From an uncultured Gammaproteobacteria bacterium (GTDB lineage: Bacteria > Patescibacteriota > Patescibacteriia > UBA11705 > DATKZF01): DNA of 64,000 bases. Under the pieces are notes generated by a model. The model was not told where the DNA came from. It searched no databases and saw nothing but the letters and a program-made list of their open reading frames with translations. Shown here one piece after another: positions 10,653-25,465 of the stretch; position 1 is the first letter of the stretch, and the number at the start of each line of letters is the position of its first letter. A program made the translations under genes and the position numbers. The stretch lies in assembly GCA_964411255.1 (NCBI GenBank), contig CAYPKD010000006.1:67097-131096 (forward strand), written 5' to 3'.

Positions 10653-10985
10653 TTATTTCTTCTCATGAAAATTTTGCCAAACCCTTGATAATTTTGCCAT
10701 TTGCCTACAACTTAAATCATATAAATCAATTGCCTTTTCACAGGTATCTTTATTCACAAAATCACCGTATAAATCAATACATGCTGATAAATGATGAATC
10801 ATTTCATTGGATTCTCCAAGTGCATCATCCAAATATTTTTTCCAATTTTTCTTTTGATATCTTTTTGCAAAACCTTCTGCAATTAATGCTGGGCCTGCTT
10901 TTGAGGCTCTGCTCATTTGATTAACCAAATCATATTTTTCTTCTTGTAGAAGTGATGGAATTATTTTCTTGTGAACCAAAATCAT
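10653..10985 (-). CDS. Four-helix-bundle protein of the 23S rRNA intervening-sequence protein family.
   Basis: The stretch QMSRASKAGPALIAEGFAKR matches the family motif QLxRAAxSIxxNIAEG. The product is 110 aa. Confidence 0.7.
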   Translation of the reverse strand: MILVHKKIIPSLLQEEKYDLVNQMSRASKAGPALIAEGFAKRYQKKNWKKYLDDALGESNEMIHHLSACIDLYGDFVNKDTCEKAIDLYDLSCRQMAKLSRVWQNFHEKK

Positions 10986-11797: not shown

Positions 11798-12304
11798 ATG
11801 AAAAATCCGAAAACTCCGTCTCAGGCACTTCGCCGAATCAAAGAAATCAAGGGTAGAATTTCCACGCTGACCATGCGCGTTCGTCAGAGCGTGTGCTGGG
11901 AAGGTGAGGATAAGCCTACCTTTGAGTTCAAGGCAGTGCTTGAGCAGCGTCAAGAGCTGGTGGCAGAGCTGGTTTCTCTGAAGACCCGTCTGATGAGAAC
12001 CAATTGCTCAGCCACACTCGAGTTCGAGGGCAGCACTCTGACCATTCAGGAAGCAGTTTTCCTGATGGCTGAGATGAAGGGAGAGCTTGAGCTCTACTCC
12101 AGTCTCAGAATCTCAGAGGGCGTGCGCAAAGAACACGCGGGGCATGATCCGAACACTGGCCGGACGATCTTCGATGATATCAAGCTTCACTCAGCAATGA
12201 GGGAGATTGAGCGACTCGAAAAGGTCGAAAAGCTCGAGGAGCGGATCAGTCAGCTCAACGACGCTGTGGAGAGCGCCAACCACCGGACCGATCTCGTTGA
12301 GTAA
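11798..12304 (+). CDS. Coiled-coil cytoplasmic protein, tentatively of the DIP1984/septicolysin-like family.
   Basis: A TAGGAGA RBS is present. The product is 168 aa. The stretch SQALRRIKEIKGRISTLTMRVRQ...LVSLKTRLMRTN is consistent with the family, but the assignment comes from memory only. G+C is visibly higher than in the flanking DNA. Confidence 0.4.
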   Translation: MKNPKTPSQALRRIKEIKGRISTLTMRVRQSVCWEGEDKPTFEFKAVLEQRQELVAELVSLKTRLMRTNCSATLEFEGSTLTIQEAVFLMAEMKGELELYSSLRISEGVRKEHAGHDPNTGRTIFDDIKLHSAMREIERLEKVEKLEERISQLNDAVESANHRTDLVE

Positions 12305-12672: not shown

Positions 12673-12921
12673 AAAAAAATTGGTTATTGGAAATTGGAAA
12701 AAGCCTTTTCACTTTTTAAATCTACCAACCGAAGCCTCTATTGCTGAGGGGTAGCTCTGCTGCCCCGCCCCTATCAGTGCGAAGGCTGGCTTATGTGTAA
12801 GAAAACACATAATATTAGGTCTTTATAAATAATAAAATAAATAGCCTTTTCTCCACACTTTTTCCCCTAACCCACTTTTTCATTATTTGTCTAAATTTAG
12901 CCTAAAAAACCTCTTTTTCCA

Positions 12922-12950
12922 TTGACTTTTACCTAAAAATATGATATAAT
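12922..12950 (+). promoter_or_regulatory. Near-consensus sigma70 promoter (TTGACT-17-TATAAT) reading into the array.
   Basis: TTGACT lies at 12922-12927, followed by a 17-nt spacer and TATAAT at 12945-12950. Confidence 0.55.
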
Positions 12951-13000
12951 ACAATATTCAAGAATGAGGGGGAGAATCTTTAAATCTTGGACCTCTCTTT

Positions 13001-13026
13001 TTGAGAGGTTTTTTTCATAGTCATTT
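13001..13026 (+). terminator. Terminator-like hairpin with a T7 run inside the leader, between the promoter and the first array gene.
   Basis: The hairpin is acctctc-ttttt-gagaggt followed by ttttttt. It lies 50-75 nt downstream of the predicted -10 and 25 nt upstream of the ATG at 13049. Confidence 0.45.
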
Positions 13027-13048
13027 AACCCAAGTGGGAGGATAAATA

Positions 13049-13528
13049 ATGCATCAAGGAAACAGCCAGAAGTCCGTATTCATTGCCCCTATCACCTTTG
13101 GCATCAGCCTGATGATTTCAGTGGTCATGCTCACCTACTATGCCAATGAGGGCTATGAACAATCGCTTCAGTCAGCGGCAGCAGCAGATGACGATCTCTA
13201 TGGTTGTCTGGACTCCAGCGACTGCGAAATCGGCGAATTCTGCTACTACGGCCAATGCATGGAGGATTACTGCCAAACTGATCTGGATTGTGAAAATGGC
13301 ATGATCTGTAACGATGCGCAATTCTGCGAGCTTGGACAGCGAGAGCCTGAATGCCTCACTGACTCTGATTGTGGAGATAACGAATTCTGTTTTGACAAAT
13401 TCTGCTCGCGCTACGGCGCTGATGAATTCACTTGTCAAGACGATTCCTACTGTTTGCCTGATGAATGGTGCTGGCACGGCATCTGCACTCCAAACGATTA
13501 CGTTCCTGACCAATCCTTCCTTCTCTAA
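13049..13528 (+). CDS. Secreted or membrane-anchored cysteine-rich protein with DxDCxxGxxC repeats.
   Basis: A GGGAGG RBS is present. An N-terminal TM or signal segment is followed by repeats such as DSSDCEIGEFC, TDLDCENGMIC, TDSDCGDNEFC and QDDSYCLPDEWC. The product is 159 aa. Confidence 0.7.
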   Translation: MHQGNSQKSVFIAPITFGISLMISVVMLTYYANEGYEQSLQSAAAADDDLYGCLDSSDCEIGEFCYYGQCMEDYCQTDLDCENGMICNDAQFCELGQREPECLTDSDCGDNEFCFDKFCSRYGADEFTCQDDSYCLPDEWCWHGICTPNDYVPDQSFLL

Positions 13529-13593
13529 CCCAACCGCGCACCTGCAGTTGGGTTCCCAGATTTGTTGATTAGAAATAATTAATAAATCTGGGA
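13528..13593 (+). repeat. Array element copy 1, the two-hairpin intergenic element.
   Basis: Hairpin 1 is ACCCAAC-cgcgcacctgca-GTTGGGT. The linker is TCCCA. Hairpin 2 is cccagattt-(20-nt AT loop)-aaatctggg. The element starts at the last A of the stop codon. Confidence 0.8.
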
Positions 13594-13630
13594 AATTTGC
13601 CAGCTTTTGAAGCGGGTATATGGAGAGAAA

Positions 13631-13981
13631 ATGAATCAAACAACAAAAAAAGTACTGACGTATCTAGCTGCATTGCTGACTTCTTGTGTGATTGGCTTAA
13701 TTGCTACATACAAGACATCTCCCTTCTTTGATGGAACAGCTCATCACTTGAGCTCTTCAGAGTTGACCATATGGCTTTCTCTGATGATCATTTCCCTACC
13801 CCTTTCTCTTTTTATCTTCGTTTGTATGATCTCCTGTATTTTGAAACATATGAATATACGTAAATTCATTGATTTCGCTACAGGAGTTTCAGCAACAGAA
13901 GATTTTGTCAAAGGGATAACATCACTTGCCAAAGCAGGGATTATGATCCTAAAAGAACACCATCAAAGAAAAACAGAGTAA
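13631..13981 (+). CDS. Small 2-TM membrane protein.
   Basis: A GGAGAG RBS is present. The track ORF starts at 13607, but the ATG at 13631 is the likely start. The product is about 116 aa. Confidence 0.55.
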   Translation: MNQTTKKVLTYLAALLTSCVIGLIATYKTSPFFDGTAHHLSSSELTIWLSLMIISLPLSLFIFVCMISCILKHMNIRKFIDFATGVSATEDFVKGITSLAKAGIMILKEHHQRKTE

Positions 13982-14028
13982 CCATATTTCTTGCGCCGGC
14001 TTTTAAAGCGGGCAATCTGGAGGGACAA

Positions 14029-14304
14029 ATGCACAAGGAAGATAAGAGAATAATTCTCCACATCTTCGGCGTAATCTGCACATGTGTTCTGGCTATTCCA
14101 TTTCCGGTATTGCTTTTCAATGGAATCTGGTTCGATGACATGCCTGCTACGCAGGCACAGATGGTTTTCAATCTAGTTATGACTTTTCTGACTACCCCTC
14201 TCGCTCTAATTTGCTATATGAAATTCCTCAAACTAATGTGGAAAGCAAGCAAAGAAGACCGACGATATCTTCACAAGCCACTCCGCACTGCATCCCAGCA
14301 GTAA
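14029..14304 (+). CDS. Small 2-TM membrane protein.
   Basis: A GGAGGG RBS is present. The gene shares the 5'-UTR motif gcttttNaagcggg-N6-tggagRg with the 13631 gene. The product is 91 aa. Confidence 0.55.
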   Translation: MHKEDKRIILHIFGVICTCVLAIPFPVLLFNGIWFDDMPATQAQMVFNLVMTFLTTPLALICYMKFLKLMWKASKEDRRYLHKPLRTASQQ

Positions 14305-14308
14305 ATTC

Positions 14309-14374
14309 ACCCAATCGCACATCTGCAATTGGGTTCCCAGATTTGTTTAGCATGAAATATTAAACAGATCTGGG
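14309..14374 (+). repeat. Array element copy 2.
   Basis: Hairpin 1 is ACCCAAT-cgcacatctgca-ATTGGGT, showing the compensatory C-to-T / G-to-A change. The linker is TCCCA. Hairpin 2 is cccagattt...agatctggg. Confidence 0.8.
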
Positions 14375-14414
14375 AATATAGTTTGAACTTTCCACATATC
14401 TTTGGAGAATTATC

Positions 14415-14630
14415 ATGAAGACAACCTCTCCCCATTGGGATGAAGTAAACGGTGTTTGCCTCAAGCATGAACTTCCCTCTATCCCTTGTCCAGCCTGTCT
14501 GGCTGGCGAAGGTGATGAGGATCTAGAGTTCGTAATCACCGAATCTGACCAGGCAGCTATGGATTGGGATCCTGATCTTCGTCCAGAAGACCTGGTCCCG
14601 GCCAACATCACCAATCCCACCATTATCTAG
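14415..14630 (+). CDS. Small acidic Cys-containing protein.
   Basis: A GGAGA RBS is present. The product is 71 aa. Confidence 0.45.
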   Translation: MKTTSPHWDEVNGVCLKHELPSIPCPACLAGEGDEDLEFVITESDQAAMDWDPDLRPEDLVPANITNPTII

Positions 14631-14658
14631 GGACATAACTAGAAAACTCCTACCTTTT

Positions 14659-14723
14659 ACCCAACCGCGCATCTGCAGTTGGGTTCCCATCTTTGTTTAA
14701 TAGAAATAATAAATAAAGACGGG
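14659..14723 (+). repeat. Array element copy 3.
   Basis: Hairpin 1 is ACCCAAC-cgcgcatctgca-GTTGGGT. The linker is TCCCA. Hairpin 2 is cccatcttt...aaagacggg. Confidence 0.8.
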
Positions 14724-14758
14724 AAGTACCTTTGGTATCTTAACGACAGGAGACTGAA

Positions 14759-15028
14759 ATGGACAGATCTGAAAAGTTGCAACTGCTCTGGATCACTTTG
14801 ATGTGTATTTTCGGAGCTCTAACAATGACTTCTCTACTTGCACTCACAATGTATGCCAGTGGAGATCTACCCAATGAACACATTGCTGCTCTTATCATTC
14901 ACTCCGTCATCGTAGGTCTGTGTGCACCAGCAACTGCTCTTCTCGGCGTCAAGGCATACCGCTACAAACGCACCTCCCAGCATCTACCTCAACCGCACTC
15001 CTGCAATATGGAAAGGTATTCGTCATGA
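14759..15028 (+). CDS. Small 2-TM membrane protein.
   Basis: An AGGAGA RBS is present. The stop overlaps the next gene's start (ATGA). The product is 89 aa. Confidence 0.55.
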   Translation: MDRSEKLQLLWITLMCIFGALTMTSLLALTMYASGDLPNEHIAALIIHSVIVGLCAPATALLGVKAYRYKRTSQHLPQPHSCNMERYSS

Positions 15029-15507
15029 TGAAATGTGAACAGTTTGAAGCACTGAATCTGAGGCTGCAGCATATCCGCGCAATCAAAGGCCGAAATGATG
15101 GCTATGTTGCCGGATTCAAGGAAGATGCGTTCGCTGCAGGCTTTTGCCTGGAGGATTTCGGCATTACTGAAGATGAGCTCAATGAGCTTGTCAAACTCGG
15201 ATTTCGGGCAGAGGCTGAAAGGCGCCTGGCTCTGACAATCTGGCCAATTCCAGAAGAAGGCATTTTCATCACCCCTCCAGAAATGGAATTTGAATTTTTC
15301 GTCCATTTCATGGAAAAGGGAGATCTGGCCTTCAAGGACTTTGGTATCACTCCTCTGCAGCTGGCTGAGCATCTGGTTCGCATTCATCAACTCTTCGATG
15401 GCTGCGTAACTGATGAAGAGAAAGAGTTGGCTCAAAGGCAGCTCTGCCAGCACGTTGAACTGGAGCCAAACTTCCTCTTCCATCAGCCAGAACCACCAGG
15501 CTACTAA
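15025..15507 (+). CDS. Cytoplasmic hypothetical protein with an internal duplication.
   Basis: The ATG at 15025 overlaps the upstream TGA stop, which suggests translational coupling. The FGIT-x-(D/L)-x-L motif occurs twice. The track start at 14920 is probably too far upstream. Confidence 0.5.
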   Translation: MMKCEQFEALNLRLQHIRAIKGRNDGYVAGFKEDAFAAGFCLEDFGITEDELNELVKLGFRAEAERRLALTIWPIPEEGIFITPPEMEFEFFVHFMEKGDLAFKDFGITPLQLAEHLVRIHQLFDGCVTDEEKELAQRQLCQHVELEPNFLFHQPEPPGY

Positions 15508-15533
15508 AACCTGCATAACTACCCTACCCTTTT

Positions 15534-15598
15534 ACCCAACCGCACTTCTGCAGTTGGGTTCCCATCTTTGTTTGTTAAAAATAATGAGCAAAGACGGG
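15534..15598 (+). repeat. Array element copy 4.
   Basis: Hairpin 1 is ACCCAAC-cgcacttctgca-GTTGGGT. The linker is TCCCA. Hairpin 2 is cccatcttt...aaagacggg. Confidence 0.8.
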
Positions 15599-15653
15599 AA
15601 TAATCCCAAATTGACAACAAGTGCCTATAAAAGGCACTCAAGGGAGACAAAGA

Positions 15654-16013
15654 ATGAATTTTACCAAAACCCTGATTCTGACAATCTCTGCAATGGCAGT
15701 TTTCAGCTGTTCCAGCCAGTCTGAAACAGCAAAGACTGACAGTGCGCAACAGAAAACTCAGACTGTCAGTGGCTGGGCAATCGAACCTGGATCGTCTGGG
15801 ATCTATTCAGCTCCAGTCAAACTGATCTGGGGAACTTACAGTGGCTATGGCAAATTCCTGGTAGAGCCAGCCAGTGACAGCTGCCACTTTGCTTCCAAAA
15901 AAGTGGGAGTGGGCAATCCCACTGGGATTGCCAGTCACAAGCAGTTTGGTCCCTATATTTTCACAGGCAGTTCAGACTGCCAGGTAAAGCTCACCAAAAT
16001 CTATCACTTGTAA
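15654..16013 (+). CDS. Lipoprotein.
   Basis: An AAGGGAGA RBS is present. The signal peptide MNFTKTLILTISAMAVFSCSS carries a lipobox. The track start at 15621 is less likely. Confidence 0.6.
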   Translation: MNFTKTLILTISAMAVFSCSSQSETAKTDSAQQKTQTVSGWAIEPGSSGIYSAPVKLIWGTYSGYGKFLVEPASDSCHFASKKVGVGNPTGIASHKQFGPYIFTGSSDCQVKLTKIYHL

Positions 16014-16038
16014 AACTGTAATAAAAAAAGGAGAACTG

Positions 16039-16197
16039 ATGAACACTGACCAGGTTCTTCGTCTGTTCGAGCTGCTGATTCTGCTGGCCATTATCATTGC
16101 GCCAGGCGGCTCGCTTCTCATTCCTGCTCAGTTGGGAGTGAGAAAATACAGGAATCATAAGCTTCAGAACAACCTTTCCCAACAACCTGCCCTTTAA
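16039..16197 (+). CDS. Small hydrophobic peptide of 52 aa. It falls below the track's size cutoff.
   Basis: A strong RBS (AAAGGAGAA) lies 5 nt upstream of the ATG. A single TM-like segment is present. Array element copy 5 begins at its stop codon. Confidence 0.4.
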   Translation: MNTDQVLRLFELLILLAIIIAPGGSLLIPAQLGVRKYRNHKLQNNLSQQPAL

Positions 16198-16263
16198 TCC
16201 AATCAGCAAACCTGCTAATTGGATTCCCAGCTTTGTTTGTTAATAATAATTAGCAAAGCTGGG
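16197..16263 (+). repeat. Array element copy 5.
   Basis: Hairpin 1 is ATCCAAT-cagcaaacctgct-AATTGGA. The linker is TTCCCA. Hairpin 2 is cccagctttg...caaagctggg, with co-varying stem positions. Confidence 0.75.
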
Positions 16264-16316
16264 AGAAGTTCAATTACAATTCAATCATTTTCCCCAAAAT
16301 GGGGAGGAGGACACCA

Positions 16317-18017
16317 ATGAGCACCATTTTCAAGAGCATTCTTGTCTGCACACTGATTTGGACTGCCAGCTGCGCTGGCGAGGAAGGCATTACGCTTTCC
16401 AATGACTGTAGCAGTGACTATGACTGTCCGGAGAACTCTTTCTGTTCTCAGAACGGTGAATGCATGGAAAAAATAGAAACGATCGTCCCAGCCTACATCT
16501 ATACCACCGGACAGAACGTCCGTAGATCTGGGGACAATCGTATCGACCTGTGCGATGGCCAGGACAATGATGAAGATGGTCTGACTGACGAAAATGATCC
16601 CAATGTGATGCAAGACTGCACTGCTTTGGTCATTTTCGAAGGCAATATGGTTCATGTCCAAGGTTATCTGGCCTGCAGTTCACTCGGGCTGGTCTGCGCC
16701 CCTCCGCCAATCGAACTTTGTCAGTTGAATTCTGAAGTCTGTTCTAACGGACTGGATGACAACTGCAATGGACTCGAAGACGAGGGCTGTAACAATTCCG
16801 AACCTGTCGATGACGACAACGACAATGACGGATACAGTCCCTCTGATGGCGACTGTGATGACAACAACCACAATGTCAGCCCTGCAGCTGTCGAATACTG
16901 CGATGATATTGACAACAACTGTGACGGGCAGACAGACGAGAGCGATCCGCAAGAAGGTTTGATCTGTATCGATCTAACCACCATCAATGGCAATGTTGTG
17001 CCGGTTGTTGGCCTGTGGGAATGTGCTCCAGCAAGTGAGCTGCGGTGCAAATTCAGCCCTGAGCACTGCCGGAATTACGAAATCTGCAACAACGGCTTTG
17101 ATGATACTTGCGACGGCGTCATTGACGACGGCTGCGATCAGACAACAGTCTCTTCTGACTGCGATGATAATGATCCCTGCACGCACGATGTACCAACCTC
17201 TGACGGGGTTTACCAGTGGTGCGAACACATCATGATCTGCGACGAGGACGGCGATGGCCAGGTAAATAACCAAAACGGTGGAGCTGACTGCGATGACAAT
17301 GACCCCTCTGTTGGCATGTGGTTTCCAGAGCTCTGCGATGGCAAAGACAATGATTGCGACGGCTTAATGGACGAAGGATGCTGTCCTGAAGGCTATCAGT
17401 TGGTCGAAGATGCGTGTTTCCCTATCGAACAGGGCACTCCCTGCAATGGCGAATATGATCCGTACGTTGGGGCCGAATGCGAAATCGTCTACTGTCTTCC
17501 CTCTGAAGACAGTGAGGTTTGTGAGGAAACCGTACTCCAGGGTTCATGGGTCTGTGGCATTGATGGCTATTTCATCTGCCAGGCAAATCCCAATACCTGT
17601 ACTGACGACTACTACATGTTCATCTCAGCAAACACACCTTCTGGCATGGCTGCTCCCAGTCCAGAAATGAAACTGGCTGAGCTCTGGATCGTAGCTATGT
17701 CTGATGACATGTATGTCGAATCGCTCACCTTCAATGTAGCCTCATTGGTTTCCTATCCTGATAACAACGATGAAACATGGGTTCTGCGAGACAAGGCTAC
17801 TTCTGAAGTGATCGCCCTGGAAATCGAAGACATCACTGGCAATGAAAATGGCCAGGTGGAATTCATTCTGAATCCACCCGCTTTCATTGCCAAAACCGAT
17901 GAGTTGGTAGTCGAAGTCTATGCAGACACGACTGAAATGTCCTTCAATGACATGATCCAGCTCTACACGCCAAACCCCTGCGGAGATGACATCTACGCTG
18001 GCGCCCTGCTCTTCTAG
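16317..18017 (+). CDS. Large secreted cysteine-rich lipoprotein with MopE-type putative metal-binding repeats.
   Basis: A GGAGGAGG RBS is present. The signal peptide is MSTIFKSILVCTLIWTASC. At least five repeats of the form ExCxNGxDDxCDGxxDEGC appear: IDLCDGQDNDEDGLTDEND, EVCSNGLDDNCNGLEDEGC, YCDDIDNNCDGQTDESD, EICNNGFDDTCDGVIDDGC and ELCDGKDNDCDGLMDEGC. The track start is 16299. Confidence 0.75.
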   Translation: MSTIFKSILVCTLIWTASCAGEEGITLSNDCSSDYDCPENSFCSQNGECMEKIETIVPAYIYTTGQNVRRSGDNRIDLCDGQDNDEDGLTDENDPNVMQDCTALVIFEGNMVHVQGYLACSSLGLVCAPPPIELCQLNSEVCSNGLDDNCNGLEDEGCNNSEPVDDDNDNDGYSPSDGDCDDNNHNVSPAAVEYCDDIDNNCDGQTDESDPQEGLICIDLTTINGNVVPVVGLWECAPASELRCKFSPEHCRNYEICNNGFDDTCDGVIDDGCDQTTVSSDCDDNDPCTHDVPTSDGVYQWCEHIMICDEDGDGQVNNQNGGADCDDNDPSVGMWFPELCDGKDNDCDGLMDEGCCPEGYQLVEDACFPIEQGTPCNGEYDPYVGAECEIVYCLPSEDSEVCEETVLQGSWVCGIDGYFICQANPNTCTDDYYMFISANTPSGMAAPSPEMKLAELWIVAMSDDMYVESLTFNVASLVSYPDNNDETWVLRDKATSEVIALEIEDITGNENGQVEFILNPPAFIAKTDELVVEVYADTTEMSFNDMIQLYTPNPCGDDIYAGALLF

Positions 18018-18032
18018 AACTCCTTCCCTAAT

Positions 18033-18097
18033 ACCCAATCAAGCATCTTTGATTGGGTTCCCATCTTTGTTTGTTAAAAATAATAAATAAAGATGGG
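18033..18097 (+). repeat. Array element copy 6.
   Basis: Hairpin 1 is a 9-bp stem, cccaatcaa-gcatct-ttgattggg. The linker is TTCCCA. Hairpin 2 is cccatcttt...aaagatggg, a perfect stem. Confidence 0.8.
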
Positions 18098-18120
18098 GTT
18101 TCACTGCAAAAGGAGGAAGA

Positions 18121-18525
18121 ATGAACGAAAGGAACAAATATTTAATTTGCCTTTTGTTTTTAAGCTTTCTGATTATCCTAATGCTGACATTTGTCTGCAT
18201 TGGGGTAAATTTTGCGCAGAAAATACCCCAATATGCAGTCAAAATTGTACTGTCAATGTTCTTATCACTTGTTTGCTTAGGTTGCTTTTATGGAACGCTA
18301 TATGTAACTTTGCATTTTCATAAAACTCAAAAAATAGAAAAAGCACTCCAAAAAGCTGCCCAAGAACAAGCAAACAGATCAACCATCCATCCAATAGACG
18401 ACCCAACGAGGTCACAAGTCATTCAATTACCAGCTTACAACACATATGACTGCCAGCTTAGCTGGGATATTGAGATGGAATCTTTAGAGCTAAAAAAACG
18501 TGTATCTACTTCAGACATAGATTAA
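18121..18525 (+). CDS. Membrane protein with 2-3 TM helices.
   Basis: An AAGGAGGAAG RBS is present. The product is 134 aa. Confidence 0.55.
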   Translation: MNERNKYLICLLFLSFLIILMLTFVCIGVNFAQKIPQYAVKIVLSMFLSLVCLGCFYGTLYVTLHFHKTQKIEKALQKAAQEQANRSTIHPIDDPTRSQVIQLPAYNTYDCQLSWDIEMESLELKKRVSTSDID

Positions 18526-18533
18526 ACCAAGAG

Positions 18534-18597
18534 TCCTAACTGTACACTAACAGTTAGGATTCCAAATTTGTTTGTAAAATATTTATAAATAAATTTG
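18534..18597 (+). repeat. Array element copy 7, the most divergent copy.
   Basis: Hairpin 1 is cctaactgt-acacta-acagttagg, a perfect 9-bp stem of different sequence. The linker is ATTCCAAA. Hairpin 2 is ccaaattt...aaatttgg. Confidence 0.7.
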
Positions 18598-18636
18598 GGA
18601 AATGAACATTCGAAATTGATATTTTTGGAGGATAAA

Positions 18637-19863
18637 ATGAAAACGCTTGTCGATTATCTCAACAAGCATTATCCACAAGGCTTTTGTTCAGCCTTAGAGG
18701 ATGATTTCAGGAAAAAGCACAGTGTCAGAATCAGACGCCAGGATGAACTGTTCCAATTCAAGTACTGGCTATTCGATTCTTCGTTTTCAAACGAAGTAAC
18801 TGGCCAAAGCAGAGGGCACATTGTAGCTTTTACAAACGGCAAGTGGGTATTTCGCTCGCGACCGTTTGACAAATTTTTCAACCGACACGAAGGTTTCTGC
18901 CCGATCAATGCAAAAGGTGAATTCGAACGGCTAATGCCAGAATTTACCTTGATTGAAAAGGCAGATGGCACAATGATCCAGCTCTGGTGGGATCCAGAAA
19001 GACAAATCTGGAGGCTTTCCACAACCGGTAGGATCAATGCTGAGGCATTGGATGACTTTCCAGACCTAATCATTGATCAGCTCTTTCTTCGAGTGCTTGG
19101 CAGAAAGCTGGAAGATTTGGACAGCATCCTCGACAAGAACAATACGTATCTTTTCGAGCTCTGCGCCAAAGAAAACGCCATTTTGACCAAGTATCCAACT
19201 GATCGAGCTTATCTGCTTACCTACAGAAACACACAAAATGGAGACTATGCCACCCTTCAGCAGGTCGCTGATCTGACCACAATTCTCAAGCAAACTGGCT
19301 GCAATCTGGGCCAGCTGTTCACAGCAAAACTTTCTGATCTGGGCCTGTCTTCTCTCAATGAACTCGCTGATTTCATTGACCAGCAGTCGAAAAATCCAGA
19401 ATTCCCAGATCCGCTTGAAGGTTTTGTCATTTGGCATGAGAACATGCCTGTGGCTAAGATGAAAACCGCGCTTTACAAGCAGTTTTTCTCTTTTTCCGGT
19501 GGAGACATGACATTTGCCAGAAAAAAAGTTGTCGAAGCGTTCTTTCAAGAACAGCTCGATGATGTCTGGCATGTGCTCAATGAAAGGCTGCTGGAACTGG
19601 CTGATTCACTTCCCCAAAAGGTACGGAAAATCGCAGAGCAAATCGAAAGACTTGCCAAAGAGCTATTTTCCAACACCTATCCAGACCGCAAGTCCTATGC
19701 TCAGGCAGTATTGGCCTTGCCAATGGACAAGAGGTTCAAAGACATTTTCTTCCGCCATCATGAGCAATTGCAAGCTGACCCCTCAAGAGCCTTTGAGTTT
19801 TTGATGGAAAAGCTGCAAAACCATGAGAACTGGAAAAAATTCATGGATCTCTGGCTCACCTAA
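18637..19863 (+). CDS. Putative ATP-dependent RNA ligase (KxDG nucleotidyltransferase, Rnl-like).
   Basis: Motif I is KADG, within LIEKADGTMIQL. Motif III-like is YLFELCA. Motif IV is EGFVIW. Motif V is AKMKTALYK. A GGAGG RBS precedes the ATG at 18637. The track start at 18595 is a TTG. Confidence 0.5.
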   Translation: MKTLVDYLNKHYPQGFCSALEDDFRKKHSVRIRRQDELFQFKYWLFDSSFSNEVTGQSRGHIVAFTNGKWVFRSRPFDKFFNRHEGFCPINAKGEFERLMPEFTLIEKADGTMIQLWWDPERQIWRLSTTGRINAEALDDFPDLIIDQLFLRVLGRKLEDLDSILDKNNTYLFELCAKENAILTKYPTDRAYLLTYRNTQNGDYATLQQVADLTTILKQTGCNLGQLFTAKLSDLGLSSLNELADFIDQQSKNPEFPDPLEGFVIWHENMPVAKMKTALYKQFFSFSGGDMTFARKKVVEAFFQEQLDDVWHVLNERLLELADSLPQKVRKIAEQIERLAKELFSNTYPDRKSYAQAVLALPMDKRFKDIFFRHHEQLQADPSRAFEFLMEKLQNHENWKKFMDLWLT

Positions 19864-19866
19864 TCA

Positions 19867-19930
19867 CCCAATCAAGCATCTTTGATTGGGTTCCCAGCTT
19901 TGTTTAGTATAATTACTGTGCAAAGCTGGG
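19867..19930 (+). repeat. Array element copy 8.
   Basis: Hairpin 1 is cccaatcaa-gcatct-ttgattggg. Hairpin 2 is cccagctttg...caaagctggg, with TATAAT in its loop. Confidence 0.8.
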
Positions 19931-19962
19931 CAAAGTTGACACAATACAAAGGAGACGATATA

Positions 19963-20244
19963 ATGGGAAATTCGTTTGAGGAACTTGAAAAAAAAGTGAT
20001 GCAAGACCAGGTTGCCAGAACAGCAGCCATTGAAAACCGCCTGCGTCGAAAATTCGGAGAAAAGTTTGAGATTCGTCGCAGACAGCAAGGCCTAAGTATC
20101 AAAAAGCTGGCTAAAGCAGCCAAAGTTTCAGAAACTCAGGTCAGACGGGCGCTCCATCGAGAACTCGGCGGCAATCTCCAGCTCAAAACCATTGTCCGAA
20201 TCGCTGATGTTCTTGGTTTGAATATCTCTATTTCTGCCAGGTAA
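19963..20244 (+). CDS. XRE-family helix-turn-helix transcriptional regulator, HigA-like with an N-terminal extension.
   Basis: An AGGAGA RBS is present. The HTH reads QGLSIKKLAKAAKVSETQVRRALHRE...LKTIVRIADVLGL. The track start is 19882. Confidence 0.6.
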   Translation: MGNSFEELEKKVMQDQVARTAAIENRLRRKFGEKFEIRRRQQGLSIKKLAKAAKVSETQVRRALHRELGGNLQLKTIVRIADVLGLNISISAR

Positions 20245-20251
20245 ACATCAA

Positions 20252-20315
20252 ACCCAACCGCACTCATGCAGTTGGGTTCCCAGTTTTGTTTGCTAATAAT
20301 AGTAAATAAAACCGG
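20252..20315 (+). repeat. Array element copy 9.
   Basis: Hairpin 1 is ACCCAAC-cgcactcatgca-GTTGGGT. The linker is TCCCA. Hairpin 2 is cccagtttt...aaaaccggg. Confidence 0.8.
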
Positions 20316-20360
20316 GACTTGTTTCTTGACAAACAAATCTTTCCAAAGTAGGAGGAAAAG

Positions 20361-22331
20361 ATGAGAGCTTTTTACACCATTCTTATGTCTTTTTTAATCT
20401 GCAACTGCGGTGGCGGAGATTCCACTCCGCCCACATCAGAAGAAACTGATGCTGGCCCGCAGATTTCATGCGGACCCAATACTATTCTGATTGACAATGT
20501 CTGCTGGTCAAAGGATGAAGCCTGCGACGGTGAAGACGATGACGGCGACGGAGAGACTGATGAAGGTTGTCCCAATTGGGATGAAATCAACATTACACTC
20601 CATTGCGACGAGGGGTTTGCATTTGAAAACGGACAATGCGTTCCACAAGAAGTGTGTGACAGCATTGACAATAACGGAAACGGAAGCATAGATGAAGGCT
20701 GTTATATTGGCGGGGCACTTCTCTGCCATTCTGATGATGACTGCGTTGACGCGCCCTGGGGGCCGTTCTGCGTTCCAGAGCTAATACTAGGAGTAAATAT
20801 TTGTCAGGCATGTCTTCAGGATACGCCAAGCGGGCAACATTCAGTTAATGGTGTCAGCCCTGGCTGCAGCGGCGATCTGCTTGTCTGCGCCTGGGGAGTT
20901 CAAGATGTGCCAGTCACAGATATCACGCCTGATGGTTTTGCTGGATTCTACTGGTGCGTCGAGTGTGTCAATAGCACAGATTGCCCAGACAACTACTTGT
21001 GCCTTGAGCAAGAATGCATTCCAAATTTCGAGGATGCTGACAGCGACGGCTATCCCAGTGACGTAGACTGCAATGACTCAGATAGTTCTATCCATCCAGA
21101 TGCTTTAGAAATCTGCGATGGGATTGACAACGACTGCGATAATGCCACTGATGAAGGCTGTCCTGTCCAAAACCACGACCAAGACAATGATGGTTACTCG
21201 CCGTTTGACGGCGACTGCGACGATGATGATCCCAATGTCAATCCAGGCGCTATTGACTGGTGCGACCAGCTCAATAACGACTGTGATGACCTAATGAATG
21301 AGGATGATCCAAACATTGGACATCCTTGTACGGCAGATCTTTACGATCCAGCCACTGATACGTATTTTATCGTCCAGGGCAGCTATGTTTGCGGCGAAGG
21401 CGGCATTGTCTGTGCTCCACCCACGCTCGAAGAGTGTCAGTTGTCTGATGAAATCTGTAATGATATCTTCGACGACAACTGTGACGGTCAGGTGGATGAG
21501 GGTTGCGAGCAACTCTCATGTGAGACAGATGATGACTGCGGTGCTGGTGGCGGCTGCGGCTGTGATCCAGACGGCAACTTTGTCTGCTCTGGCCAATCTG
21601 GCCTGTGTGTAGACGGAATATGCGAAACCACTCAAAACGTGATGGAATGTGAGCTCGGCTGCAACGAACTCGGCTGTCTTTCTGAATGCACAGAAACACC
21701 AACCGGACCAGCTGAGCCAGGCGATGTGGTCAAAGGCACATTTGATGCTCTCTACTTCATCTCCCAGGAGGTTTTCAGATATGTTGTACCCAATGAGACA
21801 ATGTATCTTTCCTGGCATTATGACAACTCCTGTGTCAAAACCATCACTGATCAGGAACTGGCTGACATGCCTTTGGCAGCAAATGTGTGCATGAGATATG
21901 GCACGCATCTGGTCAAAATCCAGTCCATTCCTATTGTCTATGCGGTCAGCACAAACTGCAATATCTACGAAATTGCTGATGAACAATCAGCTCAAGAACT
22001 TTTTGGCACAAACTGGCAAGATCGCATCTATGATGTACCTGATTCATTCTGGCCAAACTACACCATCATAGGAATTGATCTGTTCGGCAGTTGGTATCCT
22101 GATGGCTTTGTGCTACAGGTTGCTGGAAGCGATGATGTTTACCTGATCTGGAATGAGCAAAAACGACTTTTTGCCTCAGAACAGGCTTTCATTGATAATC
22201 GTTTCCAGGAAAGATTCATCACCATGGCAACTCAGGAAACGCTGGACTTTTACCCTGATGGACCAGACATCACAGGCTGCGAGCCTGATTTGGTAGATGA
22301 TTCTCAGGGCGGAGGAGGCGTTTGCCTCTAA
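20361..22331 (+). CDS. Large secreted cysteine-rich protein with MopE-type repeats and a C-terminal domain shared with the 2676-aa giant protein.
   Basis: A TAGGAGGAAAAG RBS is present, and the protein has a signal peptide. Repeats include EICDGIDNDCDNATDEGC, DWCDQLNNDCDDLMNED and EICNDIFDDNCDGQVDEGC. The C-terminal stretch IPIVYAVSTNCN...GTNWQDRIYDVPDSFWPNYTIIG aligns with the giant protein's IPKVYAVSANGT...GENWASYVDDVPDAFFINYKIG. Confidence 0.75.
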   Translation: MRAFYTILMSFLICNCGGGDSTPPTSEETDAGPQISCGPNTILIDNVCWSKDEACDGEDDDGDGETDEGCPNWDEINITLHCDEGFAFENGQCVPQEVCDSIDNNGNGSIDEGCYIGGALLCHSDDDCVDAPWGPFCVPELILGVNICQACLQDTPSGQHSVNGVSPGCSGDLLVCAWGVQDVPVTDITPDGFAGFYWCVECVNSTDCPDNYLCLEQECIPNFEDADSDGYPSDVDCNDSDSSIHPDALEICDGIDNDCDNATDEGCPVQNHDQDNDGYSPFDGDCDDDDPNVNPGAIDWCDQLNNDCDDLMNEDDPNIGHPCTADLYDPATDTYFIVQGSYVCGEGGIVCAPPTLEECQLSDEICNDIFDDNCDGQVDEGCEQLSCETDDDCGAGGGCGCDPDGNFVCSGQSGLCVDGICETTQNVMECELGCNELGCLSECTETPTGPAEPGDVVKGTFDALYFISQEVFRYVVPNETMYLSWHYDNSCVKTITDQELADMPLAANVCMRYGTHLVKIQSIPIVYAVSTNCNIYEIADEQSAQELFGTNWQDRIYDVPDSFWPNYTIIGIDLFGSWYPDGFVLQVAGSDDVYLIWNEQKRLFASEQAFIDNRFQERFITMATQETLDFYPDGPDITGCEPDLVDDSQGGGGVCL

Positions 22332-22336
22332 CGACA

Positions 22337-22369
22337 AAACCTGCTAGTTAATTACTGGCAGGTTTTTTA
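22337..22369 (+). terminator. Intrinsic terminator T1 (aacctgc...gcaggtt + T6).
   Basis: The hairpin is followed by a U-tract immediately after the 22331 stop. Confidence 0.6.
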
Positions 22370-22392
22370 TTTTAGAAAACTGATATCCAGGT

Positions 22393-22421
22393 TTGACAAA
22401 ACTTAAATAATATGCTATTTT
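22393..22421 (+). promoter_or_regulatory. Sigma70-like promoter (TTGACA-17-TATTTT).
   Basis: The hexamers and spacing were read directly from the sequence. Confidence 0.45.
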
Positions 22422-22461
22422 ATTATGATATTACTGAAACTAACATTTAATAGGAGTTATC

Positions 22462-22842
22462 ATGTTTTGGATGGCAGAAGGCGACTGGGGAGGCCAGATC
22501 TACTTTACTGTAGATCAGGATATGGTAAAAATTTCAAACAAACAACTCGTAGAGCTGGTTCGAGAACTGGACACCTATGCCTGGGATTGCAATGAGGGTC
22601 AAGGCTGGGATATCCGTCTGATGGAAATCATAAAAGAAGAATTCGACGGCATTATCCCAGGCGGCATGGGTGGCGGACGATATATTCCTGGTGAACTCTG
22701 GGTGCATAAGGCATTTGACCCTATCAAAGAGCATATCCTCCAAGTTCTTCAGGGAAAACTGGACAAACTGTCTGATAAGATCAATATCCCGCCTACTGAA
22801 CTGGAAAAATGGCAAACCGCAATGAGGCTGCTAGAAGAATAA
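22462..22842 (+). CDS. Small cytoplasmic protein; paralog of the 22931 gene.
   Basis: The two share QIYFTVD..LVKIS and YIPG.(L/I)W(V/I)H motifs. The product is 126 aa. Confidence 0.55.
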   Translation: MFWMAEGDWGGQIYFTVDQDMVKISNKQLVELVRELDTYAWDCNEGQGWDIRLMEIIKEEFDGIIPGGMGGGRYIPGELWVHKAFDPIKEHILQVLQGKLDKLSDKINIPPTELEKWQTAMRLLEE

Positions 22843-22847
22843 CTTTC

Positions 22848-22877
22848 AAACCTGCTGAAAAATTTAGCAGGTTTTTT
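22848..22877 (+). terminator. Intrinsic terminator T2 (aaacctgctg-aaaaattt-agcaggttt + T).
   Basis: A hairpin is followed by a T6 run. Confidence 0.6.
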
Positions 22878-22930
22878 GATTAAATAAAATAAGTATGATA
22901 ATCTTTTTTAAGTAAGACCTAGGAGGAATC

Positions 22931-23296
22931 ATGGGCGTCTGGATTGTAAAAAGCAGTGATGAAAGTCAAATTTATTTCACTGTTGACGAATCATTAGTAA
23001 AAATTTCTGAAGAAAAACTGCTTGAGCTGGCTCAAGACATTGATCAAATGGCAATGCCAACAACACCTGACAAAAACGTAAATCTTTTTAGGATTAAATC
23101 TGATAATCCAGCAACTATTGAATGGGTGCTTAATAAAAGTCAGGCTAAGGGCCAATATATTCCAGGACAAATTTGGATTCATCCGGATTTACTGGTTATA
23201 AAAAGCAGGATAATAGCGGTCGTTCAGGGCACAAAACGTAAAGTGACGCGACAATTGATTATTCCAAAAAAAGTTAGAGAAATAAAAATTGATTAA
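22931..23296 (+). CDS. Small cytoplasmic protein; paralog of the 22462 gene.
   Basis: A GGAGGAA RBS is present. The product is 121 aa. Confidence 0.55.
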   Translation: MGVWIVKSSDESQIYFTVDESLVKISEEKLLELAQDIDQMAMPTTPDKNVNLFRIKSDNPATIEWVLNKSQAKGQYIPGQIWIHPDLLVIKSRIIAVVQGTKRKVTRQLIIPKKVREIKID

Positions 23297-23303
23297 AAAT
23301 AAT

Positions 23304-23332
23304 TCACCTACCAAACACTTTGGTAGGTTTTT
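23304..23332 (+). terminator. Intrinsic terminator T3 (cacctaccaaa-cac-tttggtaggt + T6).
   Basis: A hairpin is followed by a T run. It is followed by ttaattcgaaa..gcgag, which is also present after T5. Confidence 0.6.
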
Positions 23333-23372
23333 TAATTCGAAAAGCTAGGTAGGAAATGCGAGATACGACTTA

Positions 23373-23401
23373 TTTGACAAAATTATCCCATTCTGCTATA
23401 A
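23373..23401 (+). promoter_or_regulatory. Consensus sigma70 promoter (TTGACA-17-TATAAT).
   Basis: TTGACA lies at 23373-23378 and TATAAT at 23396-23401. Both hexamers are perfect and the spacer is 17 nt. Confidence 0.6.
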
Positions 23402-23449
23402 TTTCTAATTATCTGTTCTTTCCAATCCAAAACAGAAGGAGCGCAAAAC

Positions 23450-24481
23450 ATGCGTAAAATCAGCCTCGCATATATTCTAATTCTTATTTTTTCAGCTTGT
23501 GGTGTATCTGGAACAACAAAACCAACTTGTGAATCTGACGCAGGAAATGAATGCGATTGTAATGAAGAAGATGTTTATTCACTTGCACCTGAAACGCAGC
23601 AAACTGTGATTTGTAGCGAAAGTACTCATCTTGAGGGCGATGAATGCGTTGCCAATGAGGTCGAAGGACTTGATCAAGATGGTGATGGATTCCCCTATCC
23701 TGAAGACTGTGATGACAGACGCATTGATGTTAATCCTGAAGCTGAAGAAATTTGTGATGCCAGAGATAATGATTGTGATGGTGAGATGGATGGTGAAGGC
23801 GTGTGTGCCTATGAATGTACGAATACATTTGTAACATATGATCAATCACATTCAGAAAATGAAGTGAATATCAACCTAGCATATACGACTGATTATAGTA
23901 CTGAATCTTCTGTATTCATAATCATGAGTGGATGTCGTCCTAATTATTTGCGATTTGAACCTCCTTTTATGATTATTGGAGACGCCTACAAAATGAGATT
24001 TGATGTATCCGGATTAGAACCTGGGGATGTCATTGAAAGATTCGTAGTCAGACAGATTATTGGTGAAACACCAATTCCGTTATTCTACGATGAAAGTAGT
24101 GGAATCGAAGGACGACTTGAACTTCGTACTTTGCATTATGAAAATGACGAGGGAGTACTAGGAGAACAAACCTATTCAACTTATCAAAACAATGACGGAA
24201 GTTTTATTTTTGAATATATTCCAATTCCAAATAATTTCTCCCCATACCTTACTTTTTCTCTAGGCCTACGTCACGGATTCGCCGGATCTCTTCAAATCTC
24301 ATTTGAGGGACTTGAGGATTTCATCGTAACAGGCAAAGATACCATTACCGGACGGCCTTTCCCTCAGCAAGGTGAATATGTAATGGTCTTGTGTCCAGAT
24401 AGAGACAATGACGGCGAAGATGATCACAGATGCGGTGGAACCGATCCTGATGACAAGTCTCTCTATCCTGACAATCTTTAA
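23450..24481 (+). CDS. Secreted lipoprotein with one MopE-type repeat.
   Basis: An AGGAG RBS is present. The signal peptide with lipobox reads LILIFSACG. The repeat is DCDDRRIDVNPEAEEICDARDNDCDGEMDGEG. The product is 343 aa. Confidence 0.7.
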   Translation: MRKISLAYILILIFSACGVSGTTKPTCESDAGNECDCNEEDVYSLAPETQQTVICSESTHLEGDECVANEVEGLDQDGDGFPYPEDCDDRRIDVNPEAEEICDARDNDCDGEMDGEGVCAYECTNTFVTYDQSHSENEVNINLAYTTDYSTESSVFIIMSGCRPNYLRFEPPFMIIGDAYKMRFDVSGLEPGDVIERFVVRQIIGETPIPLFYDESSGIEGRLELRTLHYENDEGVLGEQTYSTYQNNDGSFIFEYIPIPNNFSPYLTFSLGLRHGFAGSLQISFEGLEDFIVTGKDTITGRPFPQQGEYVMVLCPDRDNDGEDDHRCGGTDPDDKSLYPDNL

Positions 24482-24483
24482 TT

Positions 24484-24512
24484 GCCTGCCAAACATTTTG
24501 GCAGGTTTTTTT
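24484..24512 (+). terminator. Intrinsic terminator T4 (gcctgccaaa-catt-ttggcaggt + T7).
   Basis: A hairpin is followed by a T run. Confidence 0.6.
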
Positions 24513-24543
24513 GATATAATAAAAGTAGAGATATACATAAAAT

Positions 24544-24572
24544 TGACAAAACCATACAAATCTGTTAATATT
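24544..24572 (+). promoter_or_regulatory. Sigma70 promoter (TTGACA-17-TAATAT).
   Basis: The hexamers and spacing were read directly from the sequence. Confidence 0.5.
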
Positions 24573-24608
24573 TAAAATTGAAAACGTTAGCTGTTATATG
24601 CTGCTTGT

Positions 24609-25283
24609 TTGGTAATATTACTAAATAATATGGATCTAACAGATCTTTCCAATCATCCATGGGAGACACTAATGCAAAATGTCTACCTCACACTAATTCT
24701 GTTTTCTTTTTCAGCGTGCTATGTAAATCCAAATCAATCAACCCGATTGACACAAAGCAATAATTATATTCCAACTCATGGATATAGTGGCTCGTATGAA
24801 TATTTTGATGAAACAAATCATGAAGATTTTGAAATATTTGTTGGAGAGGATACTATACTATATCCAGATACAAACACTTTGCCTGAAGAAATTGAAGAAA
24901 CTCAGAAAGATATTTACATGACAGATCGGATAGATCCCTTGATGTGCGGAATTTGCGTACAAGGGCAAACACCAATAGAAGAATCATGTAATGGGCTGGA
25001 CGATGACTGCGACTGTGAAATCGACGAAAATTGGGCAGATAAACTTGGTACTCCTTGCAGAGGCTATTATCTGGAAGGAGAAATTTTCCTTGACGGATAC
25101 TGTACTGACTTAGGAGAAATTATTTGTAACTCAATACCTGGCCATGGGTATATGTATCTTCAATGCTCCACTGCTGATCCAACATCAGCTTTCACAACAC
25201 CTGCTTATTGGGATAAAAAAGACGGATGTGATAATCTTGATGCTGACTGTGATGGAGAGATTGATGAAGATTGCGTGGAATAA
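24609..25283 (+). CDS. Secreted lipoprotein with MopE-type repeats.
   Basis: The signal peptide and lipobox FSAC are present, and the likely start is the ATG at 24672 (GGGAGA RBS). Repeats include CNGLDDDCDCEIDEN and GCDNLDADCDGEIDEDC. Confidence 0.65.
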   Translation: MVILLNNMDLTDLSNHPWETLMQNVYLTLILFSFSACYVNPNQSTRLTQSNNYIPTHGYSGSYEYFDETNHEDFEIFVGEDTILYPDTNTLPEEIEETQKDIYMTDRIDPLMCGICVQGQTPIEESCNGLDDDCDCEIDENWADKLGTPCRGYYLEGEIFLDGYCTDLGEIICNSIPGHGYMYLQCSTADPTSAFTTPAYWDKKDGCDNLDADCDGEIDEDCVE

Positions 25284-25289
25284 AACTAA

Positions 25290-25318
25290 TCTGCCAAACA
25301 ATTTGGTGGGTTTTTTTT
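25290..25318 (+). terminator. Intrinsic terminator T5 (ctgccaaa-caa-tttggtgg + T8).
   Basis: A hairpin with G-U pairs is followed by a T run. The flank ttaattcgaaatgcgag matches that after T3. Confidence 0.55.
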
Positions 25319-25391
25319 AATTCGAAATGCGAGAGGCAAAAGGTGAAAATTGCATATTTTACTAAATTTAGACAAAAAATACAAAAACAAT

Positions 25392-25420
25392 TTGACAAAT
25401 CACTATATAAATGCTAAAAT
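25392..25420 (+). promoter_or_regulatory. Sigma70 promoter (TTGACA-17-TAAAAT).
   Basis: The hexamers and spacing were read directly from the sequence. Confidence 0.5.
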
Positions 25421-25465
25421 TACAATCCATAACTACACTGAAAAAGGCAAAACAGGAGCAGGAAA

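Follow-up and report, generated by a model that had tools for sequence, protein, structure and literature searches.

In enterobacteria, transcribed intercistronic hairpins of the repetitive extragenic palindrome (REP) and bacterial interspersed mosaic element (BIME) type lie after stop codons, act as barriers to 3′ exonucleases and bring about differential expression within an operon; the REP between malE and malF stabilises the upstream mRNA. REPs number in the hundreds per genome, are dispersed in both orientations and are linked to REP-associated tyrosine transposases (RAYTs). The early genes of phage T7 are separated by RNase III sites, cleavage of which yields single mRNAs stabilised by 3′ hairpins. 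Other structured repeats act in DNA. The attC sites of integrons, 57–141 bp long, recombine as a fold of the bottom strand, in which the R-box triplet AAC/GTT is the only universally conserved sequence, alongside an unpaired 5–6-nt central spacer in each arm, an L box, 2–3 extrahelical bases and a variable terminal structure (PMC5027507). In T4-type phages, genes that lack known homologues are deleted, inserted and circularised by recombination between promoter-early stem-loops (PeSLs), each of which combines a strong sigma-70 promoter with a stem-loop that terminates transcription (PMC2839356, PMC4122927). Here we analyse a 64-kb stretch of DNA (contig CAYPKD010000006.1 of assembly GCA_964411255.1; hereafter the window) from an uncultured bacterium placed by GTDB in the Patescibacteriota. 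Between positions 12900 and 22370 of the window lie 13 co-directional + strand open reading frames (ORFs; g1–g13), among which are interspersed nine copies of an element made of two hairpins (E1–E9). Like attC, PeSL and REP sequences, this element is an intergenic repeat with a defined structure that is associated with the turnover of genes as modules, but it belongs to no described family, and its architecture, strand and position differ from those of each. It links an intercistronic RNA fold with gene-by-gene turnover in a locus of secreted, lipid-anchored and small membrane proteins.

Copies, fold and strand of the element

Repeat finding and alignment located the nine copies at 13528, 14309, 14659, 15534, 16197, 18033, 18534, 19867 and 20252, where an earlier note, made from the sequence alone, had already placed them. 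They are 66–73 nt long (about 70) and can be aligned over ~70 nt. A covariance model built from these copies (R1) scored each of them at 76–92 bits; with filters off, its best further match on the + strand of the window reached 19.6 bits, and a second model built from 24 copies (R2) gave the same outcome. No copy was present in the ~10 kb past the right end of the window or in the ~7 kb past its left end. The covariance-model search that the note had proposed, run over a total of ~84 kb, accordingly recovered all nine copies and no other.

The element occupies a consistent place relative to the genes. It begins −1 to 28 nt after a stop codon, an overlap with the stop amounting to one base, and ends 22–53 nt before the next start codon. 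It is present at 9 of the 12 gene junctions, so that its description as following each ORF holds for those nine and fails for g2/g3, g5/g6 and g7/g8. All 24 copies from all sources share the orientation of the genes.

A metagenome scan identified real copies in three contigs, with covariance-model scores of 54–91 bits. L052 with L056, and L054 (sample Ga0180437), represent the same locus in a sister species, at ~82–91% nucleotide identity to the window (~86%) and with the same flanks, namely gatA, gatC and a DUF6847 gene on the left and ligA on the right. L055 (Ga0180007), of 1.3 kb, carries four copies that separate three small + strand genes, none of which is related to the genes here, and both starts and ends inside elements. 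The five sampled strains of the sister species have one common array layout, and the window's own genome recurs unchanged in several assemblies. An exact-pattern scan of 185,579 species genomes (the source genome not among them) returned 45 single matches, all attributable to chance, with ~70 expected for 17 specified bases. Scans of viral contigs returned three chance single matches to the 17-base pattern and none to a longer pattern, and the covariance model confirmed none of them. One metagenome match, L053, was likewise rejected as chance, being inside a G+C-rich coding region. Among 5.8 billion proteins, DUF6847 has two homologues beyond the window's own sequence and the XRE-type protein of the array (g12) has one; with almost no homologues of either, orthologous loci from more distant relatives therefore could not be gathered. 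The lineage is very rare in public data, the element occurring in only two or three related genomes among billions of sequences. We conclude that the element is real, structured and lineage-specific.

The consensus fold consists of two hairpins that abut, with 0–1 nt between them. Hairpin 1 has an outer stem of 7 bp (ACCCAAY/RTTGGGT), followed by one variable position, 3 bp and a loop of 4–6 nt; of the 23 copies, 13 carry a mismatch at the variable position (11 C·A, 2 C·C) and the others a pair. Hairpin 2, folded as RNA, is a stem of 17–18 bp with a G–C base, an upper part of A–U and G·U pairs and a loop of 4–5 nt, and not the 9–10 bp around an ~18-nt loop that had been proposed for it; many of its pairs are G·U. 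The junction of the two hairpins is the longest stretch of identity among copies. What had been described there as an invariant GG(G/A)TTCC(C/A)A linker proved to be GGGTTCCCA, the G–C-rich closing pairs of both hairpins. Single copies fold as RNA at −31 to −37 kcal/mol, with z scores of −8 to −10 relative to dinucleotide shuffles.

Conservation of pairing was measured in 23 distinct copies from three sources, across 27 pairs and 612 cells. Standard pairing occurred in 96.7% of the cells and fell to 32–53% when, as a control, the 3′ partner was slid by 1–3 columns. Changes on both sides of a pair, that is, compensatory changes, were seen in 12 of the 27 pairs, and in 11 of 28 pairs when the nine window copies were taken by themselves. 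None of 500 shuffles reached the observed values, apart from a single one for the number of pairs with both sides changed. Comparison of orthologous copies provided a test independent of paralogy: nine element pairs from the two species contained 36 changed pairs, of which 12 were compensated on both sides, 18 had changed on one side and were still paired through wobble, and 6 included one unpaired state, so that the pair was kept in 30 of 36 changes. The compensatory changes first noticed from the sequence alone are thus borne out, and the covariation upholds the claim drawn from them: the fold, not the sequence, is under selection.

The wobble pairs in the stems are one-sided, with 62 G·T cells and 6 A·C cells. 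A constraint on duplex DNA, or an equal constraint on either strand, would give similar numbers of the two; the fold is therefore selected on the + strand, which for all the array genes is the sense strand. Folds of the + strand are also 0.5–10 kcal/mol more stable than those of the − strand. The strand evidence points to RNA, the sole alternative being single-stranded DNA of the top strand, and we consider it probable that the element is a selected sense-strand RNA structure.

The same asymmetry bears on whether the element could be a DNA operator or promoter module bound by the XRE regulator of the array, as the earlier note had also suggested. Both hairpins are palindromic in DNA, the XRE gene lies within the array, and the loop of E8 contains TATAAT. 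However, an excess of G·T over A·C is meaningless for duplex DNA, and the half-sites co-vary (ACCCAAC, ATCCAAT, TCCTAAC) in a manner that preserves pairing and not a recognition sequence. A promoter scan detected no match in seven of the nine elements and weak 9-of-12 matches in E4 (+ strand) and E8 (− strand). Promoter-like sites in the region numbered 32, compared with 28.7 in shuffles, and within the array strong ones occur only at 12922 and 19936. An operator role is, in our judgement, most improbable. A promoter inside each element, with TTGGGT as its −35 and the −10 in the loop, was rejected: by eye it matches at 6–8 of 12 positions at most in most copies and the scan lists none. The element-internal −10 candidates, read in one register, usually miss the key final T.

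Comparison with attC reveals a general likeness and specific differences. The array resembles an integron or a cluster of attC sites lacking integrases (CALIN) in being co-oriented, mostly promoterless and placed behind one promoter, in carrying a structured repeat after its ORFs, and in conserving structure more than sequence. The total length of the element falls within 57–141 bp, and 13 of 23 copies have outer 7-mers of the form RYYYAAC/GTTRRRY. The triplet that is universal in attC is nevertheless variable here: at the AAC/GTT position, 13 distinct copies have C–G and 10 of 23 have U–A (AAT/ATT), with ATT in 4 of the 9 window copies. Only 12 nt lie between the R-like arms, with no more than one mismatch and without any one-sided bulge, and the element comprises two separate, near-perfect and independent hairpins where attC is one imperfect hairpin. 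The favoured strand is the top (sense) strand, opposite to that of attC, and the module boundary lies between the two hairpins, whereas in attC it lies inside R′. No integrase or other recombinase family was matched among the window ORFs scanned or the flank genes called (~10 kb on the right, ~7 kb on the left), several ORFs of 110–166 aa having been covered only via precomputed annotation or left unscanned. In particular, neither the window ORFs scanned nor the genes called in those flanks gave a Phage_integrase match, in agreement with the earlier remark that the window contains no intI; a complete integron would have this tyrosine recombinase gene, with attI and Pc, beside the array. With a variable triplet, no spacer, L box or extrahelical bases, the wrong strand and no recombinase gene found in ~84 kb, the integron reading was abandoned: the element is not an attC site, and the locus is neither an integron nor a CALIN.

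Gene turnover at element boundaries

We compared the window with a composite of the sister-species locus. In place of g2 and g3 (13637–14305), the sister species has another small membrane-protein gene, an additional element and a gene for a 255-aa Cys-rich lipoprotein. Collinearity resumes exactly at ATTGGGTTCCCA of E2, where hairpin 2 and the 5′ untranslated region (UTR) of g4 are orthologous and the inner part of hairpin 1 differs. The sister species lacks g6. In the window this gene directly follows a relic hairpin 1 (14986–15011), now part of the 3′ end of g5, and is accompanied by an intact hairpin 1 of its own, in E4. At the E9 junction, the sister species has an extra module inserted, composed of a hairpin 2, a 73-aa gene and a hairpin 1, and E9 of the window consists of the flank and hairpin 1 5′ arm of one sister copy (the inner hairpin 1 having diverged) together with hairpin 2 of the next. 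Three species junctions therefore map to the boundary of hairpin 1 and hairpin 2. Gain, loss and replacement of genes at element boundaries, which the earlier note had named beforehand as the variation to be sought in related genomes, are seen in the sister species.

The two hairpins also appear to have separate histories within the window. Similarity in hairpin 1 and similarity in hairpin 2 are not significantly linked among the nine copies (Mantel r 0.27, p 0.17), and E6 and E8 have identical hairpins 1 and hairpins 2 that differ by 30%. Because the junctions lie at the hairpin boundary and the hairpin similarities are unlinked, the natural module would seem to be hairpin 2, ORF and hairpin 1, with exchange at the G–C-rich junction.

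Such a module could belong to a new, non-integron cassette system, in which a recombinase encoded elsewhere in the genome recognises the fold (as single-stranded top strand or as a cruciform), exchanges at the hairpin junction and moves hairpin 2–ORF–hairpin 1 units. The three independent species junctions and the unlinked genealogies of the hairpins are what this would produce, and it would suit the heterogeneous and compositionally foreign cargo (G+C at third codon positions (GC3) of 0.43–0.56 compared with 0.27–0.29, g2 and g10 being at 0.34), the unrelated cargo between the same elements in L055 and the resemblance of the outer 7-mers to attC R boxes. Against it, no tyrosine, serine or HUH recombinase family was found in the ORFs scanned or called over ~84 kb, AAC/GTT is not conserved (13 C–G versus 10 U–A), and the wobble asymmetry favours the sense strand, which is that of the mRNA. 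Other insertions and deletions in the locus ignore the element, and the array is stable among the five sampled sister-species strains. Moreover, gene order has also been shuffled at neighbouring terminator–promoter modules, so that general homologous recombination suffices. We therefore regard a dedicated cassette system as unlikely.

Those neighbouring modules lie immediately after the array. Similar intrinsic terminators of a single family (ACCTGCCAAACAnTTTGGCAGG followed by a T-run) delimit each of five genes at 22336–26350, four of which have a sigma-70-like promoter ahead of them; the genes at 22.3–26.4 kb each end in a canonical hairpin and T-run, with sigma-70 promoters after the terminators. 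Gene order at 22.4–26.4 kb differs between the window and the sister species (L060), in a PeSL-like shuffling within a cellular genome. Shuffling thus extends to terminator–promoter modules, so recombination at any repeated intergenic module seems, from these comparisons, to operate in this locus.

The outcome for the array itself resembles the PeSL-mediated modular shuffling of T4-type phages. Both involve stem-loop repeats of ~50–100 bp in a hypervariable region, where they separate small genes that lack known homologues; in both the repeats bound insertions, deletions and replacements between close relatives and travel with a gene as a cassette, and for neither is a dedicated recombinase known. 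Unlike a PeSL, however, the element has no promoter and no U-tract terminator, shows RNA-type covariation on the sense strand, and sits inside one operon of a cellular genome and not in a phage. The closer analogue of PeSLs within the window is the set of terminator–promoter modules at 22.3–26.4 kb.

Proposed punctuation of a predicted operon transcript

The array has the look of a single operon, apparently transcribed as one polycistronic mRNA of ~9.4 kb, from the promoter at 12922 through 13 genes to the terminator at 22336. The operon promoter (12922–12950, + strand; TTGACT-17-TATAAT with an upstream TG) matched at 11 of 12 positions in the scan and is conserved in the sister species (L052 10484–10512). 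The intrinsic terminator that closes the operon (22336–22372, +), identified by a terminator scan, has a 13-bp stem followed by a T-run. The near-consensus promoter upstream is thus as the earlier note had it, but it is not the only one: a second, perfect sigma-70 promoter (TTGACA-17-TATAAT; 19936–19964, +) lies within the array, directly 3′ of E8 and conserved in L054. Its −10 overlaps the ATG of g12, and a transcript from it would begin inside the annotated XRE ORF, where the next in-frame ATG is at 19999.

The reading that we favour, and to which we assign roughly even chances in its full form, is that the element is an intercistronic mRNA structure that bounds cistrons for stability or processing and, in addition, provides portable homology for gene shuffling. 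The two-hairpin element would punctuate the operon mRNA, with hairpin 1 capping the 3′ end of the upstream cistron and hairpin 2, 22–53 nt before the next start codon, capping the 5′ end of the downstream cistron. The hairpins might act as exonuclease barriers, as the substrate of a double-strand-specific RNase, or as both, and stability and expression level would thereby be set separately for each cistron of a mixed operon. Since unrelated genes are separated by the same ~70 nt, the element would also offer, as a by-product, portable homology through which genes could be shuffled. Of the alternatives raised in the earlier note, intercistronic RNA processing or stability hairpins is the best supported.

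This role would have parallels in both REPs and the T7 early region. Like REP and BIME sequences, the element places a hairpin directly after stop codons in a predicted transcript, but it is confined to one locus and one orientation and adds a second, 5′-proximal hairpin. As in the T7 early region, stem-loops recur between the cistrons of one long transcript, here a predicted one; the T7 sites are, however, single hairpins with an internal loop, and at 17–18 bp hairpin 2 is at the short end for RNase III, whose substrate it would putatively be. The likeness to REPs, which are also palindromic, intergenic and located after stop codons, might equally suggest a selfish or neutral repeat without host function, similar to a miniature inverted-repeat transposable element (MITE) or to a REP or BIME. 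All copies nevertheless face the same way and are confined, over the ~84 kb covered, to one 7-kb operon; their positions are orthologous, and their structure has been kept by compensatory change since the species split. In addition, none of the ORFs scanned or called over ~84 kb matched a RAYT, Y1 or IS200-like transposase family. We consider a selfish or neutral repeat very unlikely.

Several observations weigh against mRNA punctuation with shuffling as its by-product. Co-transcription, processing and stabilisation are each predicted from the sequence. No known RNase recognition motif was identified in the element, its hairpins leave no single-stranded gap for a cut of the RNase E/Y type, and 3 of the 12 operon junctions work without it. 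On the + strand, hairpin 1 is mismatched in 13 of 23 copies, and its 11 C·A cases would be G·T wobbles on the − strand. The gene g7, found only in the window, has one boundary 16 nt past E4 and the other at the g8 ribosome-binding site, both outside the elements, and the deletion of the 5′ two-thirds of the RNA ligase gene in the sister species does not coincide with an element. Finally, the recurring junction point could instead mean that a site-specific recombinase is encoded elsewhere in the genome.

The element could also act during transcription and grade expression along the operon (polarity), whether by pausing, by attenuation or as a terminator lacking a U-tract. Very stable hairpins directly after stop codons would be suited to this, a terminator-like hairpin in the leader of the operon hints at antitermination control, and the internal promoter at 19936 could restore expression of distal genes. 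Yet neither hairpin is followed by a U-tract in any copy, canonical U-tract terminators are present in the same genome a few hundred bases away, and nine successive leaky terminators would leave hardly any expression of the last genes, which include those for the two largest proteins. A transcription-level device is thus a rather unlikely explanation, if less so than a cassette recombinase. With respect to termination proper, the scan flagged E7 alone of the nine copies (it is followed by CAAATTTGTT), and a U-run follows either hairpin in 0 of 9; we rejected the identity of the element as an intrinsic terminator on the absence of a U-run in a genome that uses canonical U-tract terminators so close by.

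Two further identities were considered and set aside. In several minimum-energy folds, a CU-rich tract ahead of hairpin 1 base-pairs with the ribosome-binding site of the following gene, as an anti-Shine–Dalgarno sequence might, but the energies were no better than those of shuffled tracts (z −1.05 to +1.8). Hairpin 1, with ~12 bp followed by N-CCA, recalls a tRNA-like minihelix; the CCCA is, however, also the base of hairpin 2, one copy has TCCG, and no tRNA-like model matched. At gathering thresholds, Rfam 15 matched only three tRNAs in the window, and at E-values up to 10 it returned only chance matches to miRNA and long non-coding RNA families at 12900–20400.

If the RNA role is correct, the locus shows an organism with a small genome tuning and insulating the cistrons within one operon. 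If instead the element acts as DNA, it would define a cassette system outside the integron family, with integron-like diversification of surface proteins in reduced genomes like those of the candidate phyla radiation (CPR). The hairpin boundary offers a precise place at which to test for RNA ends or for DNA crossovers.

Genes of the array and its neighbourhood

The G+C content of the island is 0.43–0.49, compared with 0.33–0.37 in its flanks, as the earlier note had described. GC3 of the array genes is 0.43–0.56 versus 0.27–0.29 for gatA, ligA, recG and clpC, with g2 and g10 as exceptions at 0.34. The cargo comprises a DUF7107 Cys-rich protein, five small membrane proteins, a small lipoprotein, two large lipoproteins with MopE motifs, two soluble proteins (g4 and g6), an RNA ligase and an XRE helix-turn-helix protein. 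Its heterogeneity, another feature noticed earlier, was borne out: most of the genes, among them those for the small soluble proteins g4 and g6, have no family assignment, and public protein sets contain hardly any homologues of the two that were checked, g6 and g12; for g6, a search of 1.84 billion representatives gave no close homologue. In scans of the cargo for defence systems and phage families, only the RNA ligase and the XRE protein matched, the latter through weak matches to helix-turn-helix models.

All features of the array are on the + strand. Ahead of g1, the 5′ leader contains a terminator-like hairpin with a run of seven U (12989–13019), detected by the terminator scan and by RNA folding and conserved in L052; within the leader at 12957–13048, between the promoter and the start of g1, this hairpin and U-run may be an attenuator or an antitermination target. 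The first gene, g1 (13049–13528), encodes a 159-aa Cys-rich, membrane-anchored protein (DUF7107, from Pfam) and is followed by E1 (13526–13598), which scored 92.4 bits with R1 and folds at −36.7 kcal/mol (z −9.8). The small membrane proteins g2 (116 aa) and g3 (91 aa), in the segment replaced in the sister species (13631–14304), have no element between them. A separate 5′ UTR motif, GCCRGCTTTTRAAGCGGG, is common to g2 and g3 (13597–13630 and 13985–14028) and to the L052 replacement gene; it can form a small hairpin and looks like a second, smaller repeat family linked to gene starts.

E2 (14307–14380; R1 82.6 bits), whose hairpin 2 is orthologous to that at L052 12424, precedes g4 (14415–14630), which is listed as an ORF for a 71-aa protein, and E3 (14657–14729; 87.9 bits) precedes g5 (14759–15028). 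The latter encodes an 89-aa membrane protein and, as its ORF and the species alignment indicate, reads at its 3′ end through the relic hairpin 1, ACCTCAACCGCACTCCTGCAATATGG, which belongs to a repeat family of its own (D6), remains at the point where g6 was inserted and aligns to an intact hairpin 1 in the sister species. The inserted gene, g6 (15025–15507), encodes 160 aa, its absence from the sister species being evident from the species alignment. E4 (15532–15604; 91.0 bits) shows a compensatory change of C–G to U–A relative to its orthologue. Next are g7, which encodes a 119-aa lipoprotein and is missing in the sister species, and g8 (52 aa), together at 15654–16197 without an element between them, and E5 (16195–16269; 78.6 bits), also supported by RNA folding.

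The 566-aa lipoprotein g9 (16317–18017) has MopE-type metal-binding motifs (Pfam PF11617) and is separated by E6 (18031–18103; 84.3 bits) from g10 (18121–18525), a 134-aa membrane protein whose GC3 of 0.34 is host-like. E7 (18532–18605; 76.1 bits), the most divergent copy (TCCTAAC/GTTAGGA), is supported by RNA folding. It is followed by g11 (18637–19863), a T4 Rnl1-like RNA ligase (Pfam PF09511, phrog_562). In the sister species, the remaining 3′ third of the ligase gene is a 134-aa ORF with a new start codon (L054 7720–8124, − strand). The possibility that the element was carried in with the ligase was rejected, as the closest homologues of the ligase (33–36% identity) occur in jumbo-phage-like contigs without it. 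E8 (19864–19936; 78.5 bits) and the internal promoter lead into g12 (19963–20244), a 93-aa XRE-type protein (Pfam HTH_3). E9 (20250–20322; 89.3 bits), split in the sister species by the extra cassette at the hairpin 1/hairpin 2 junction, precedes the final gene of the operon, g13 (20361–22331), which encodes a 656-aa lipoprotein with MopE motifs found by Pfam.

The surrounding genes are cellular (gatCA, ligA, recG, radA and clpC) and include some for large T4SS_pilin-domain proteins, which are typical of CPR bacteria. Two large proteins at 53331–57737 combine T4SS_pilin with a Peptidase_C39-like or an Amidase_2 domain, and a 2676-aa Laminin_G_3 protein is encoded at 37249–45279; together with the T4SS_pilin proteins, it suggests an episymbiont of the CPR type. 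Directly upstream of the array, the DUF6847 gene (11798–12304) has the highest GC3 of the region (0.63) and may belong to the same foreign island. The flanks also differ in content between the two species: in the gatA/gatC interval, the window has a gene of the 23S-rRNA-IVP family (10653–10985) where the sister species has an Smr-domain gene (L065 9005–9379), and the sister species carries an extra GIY-YIG gene adjoining ligA (L060 11077–11388).

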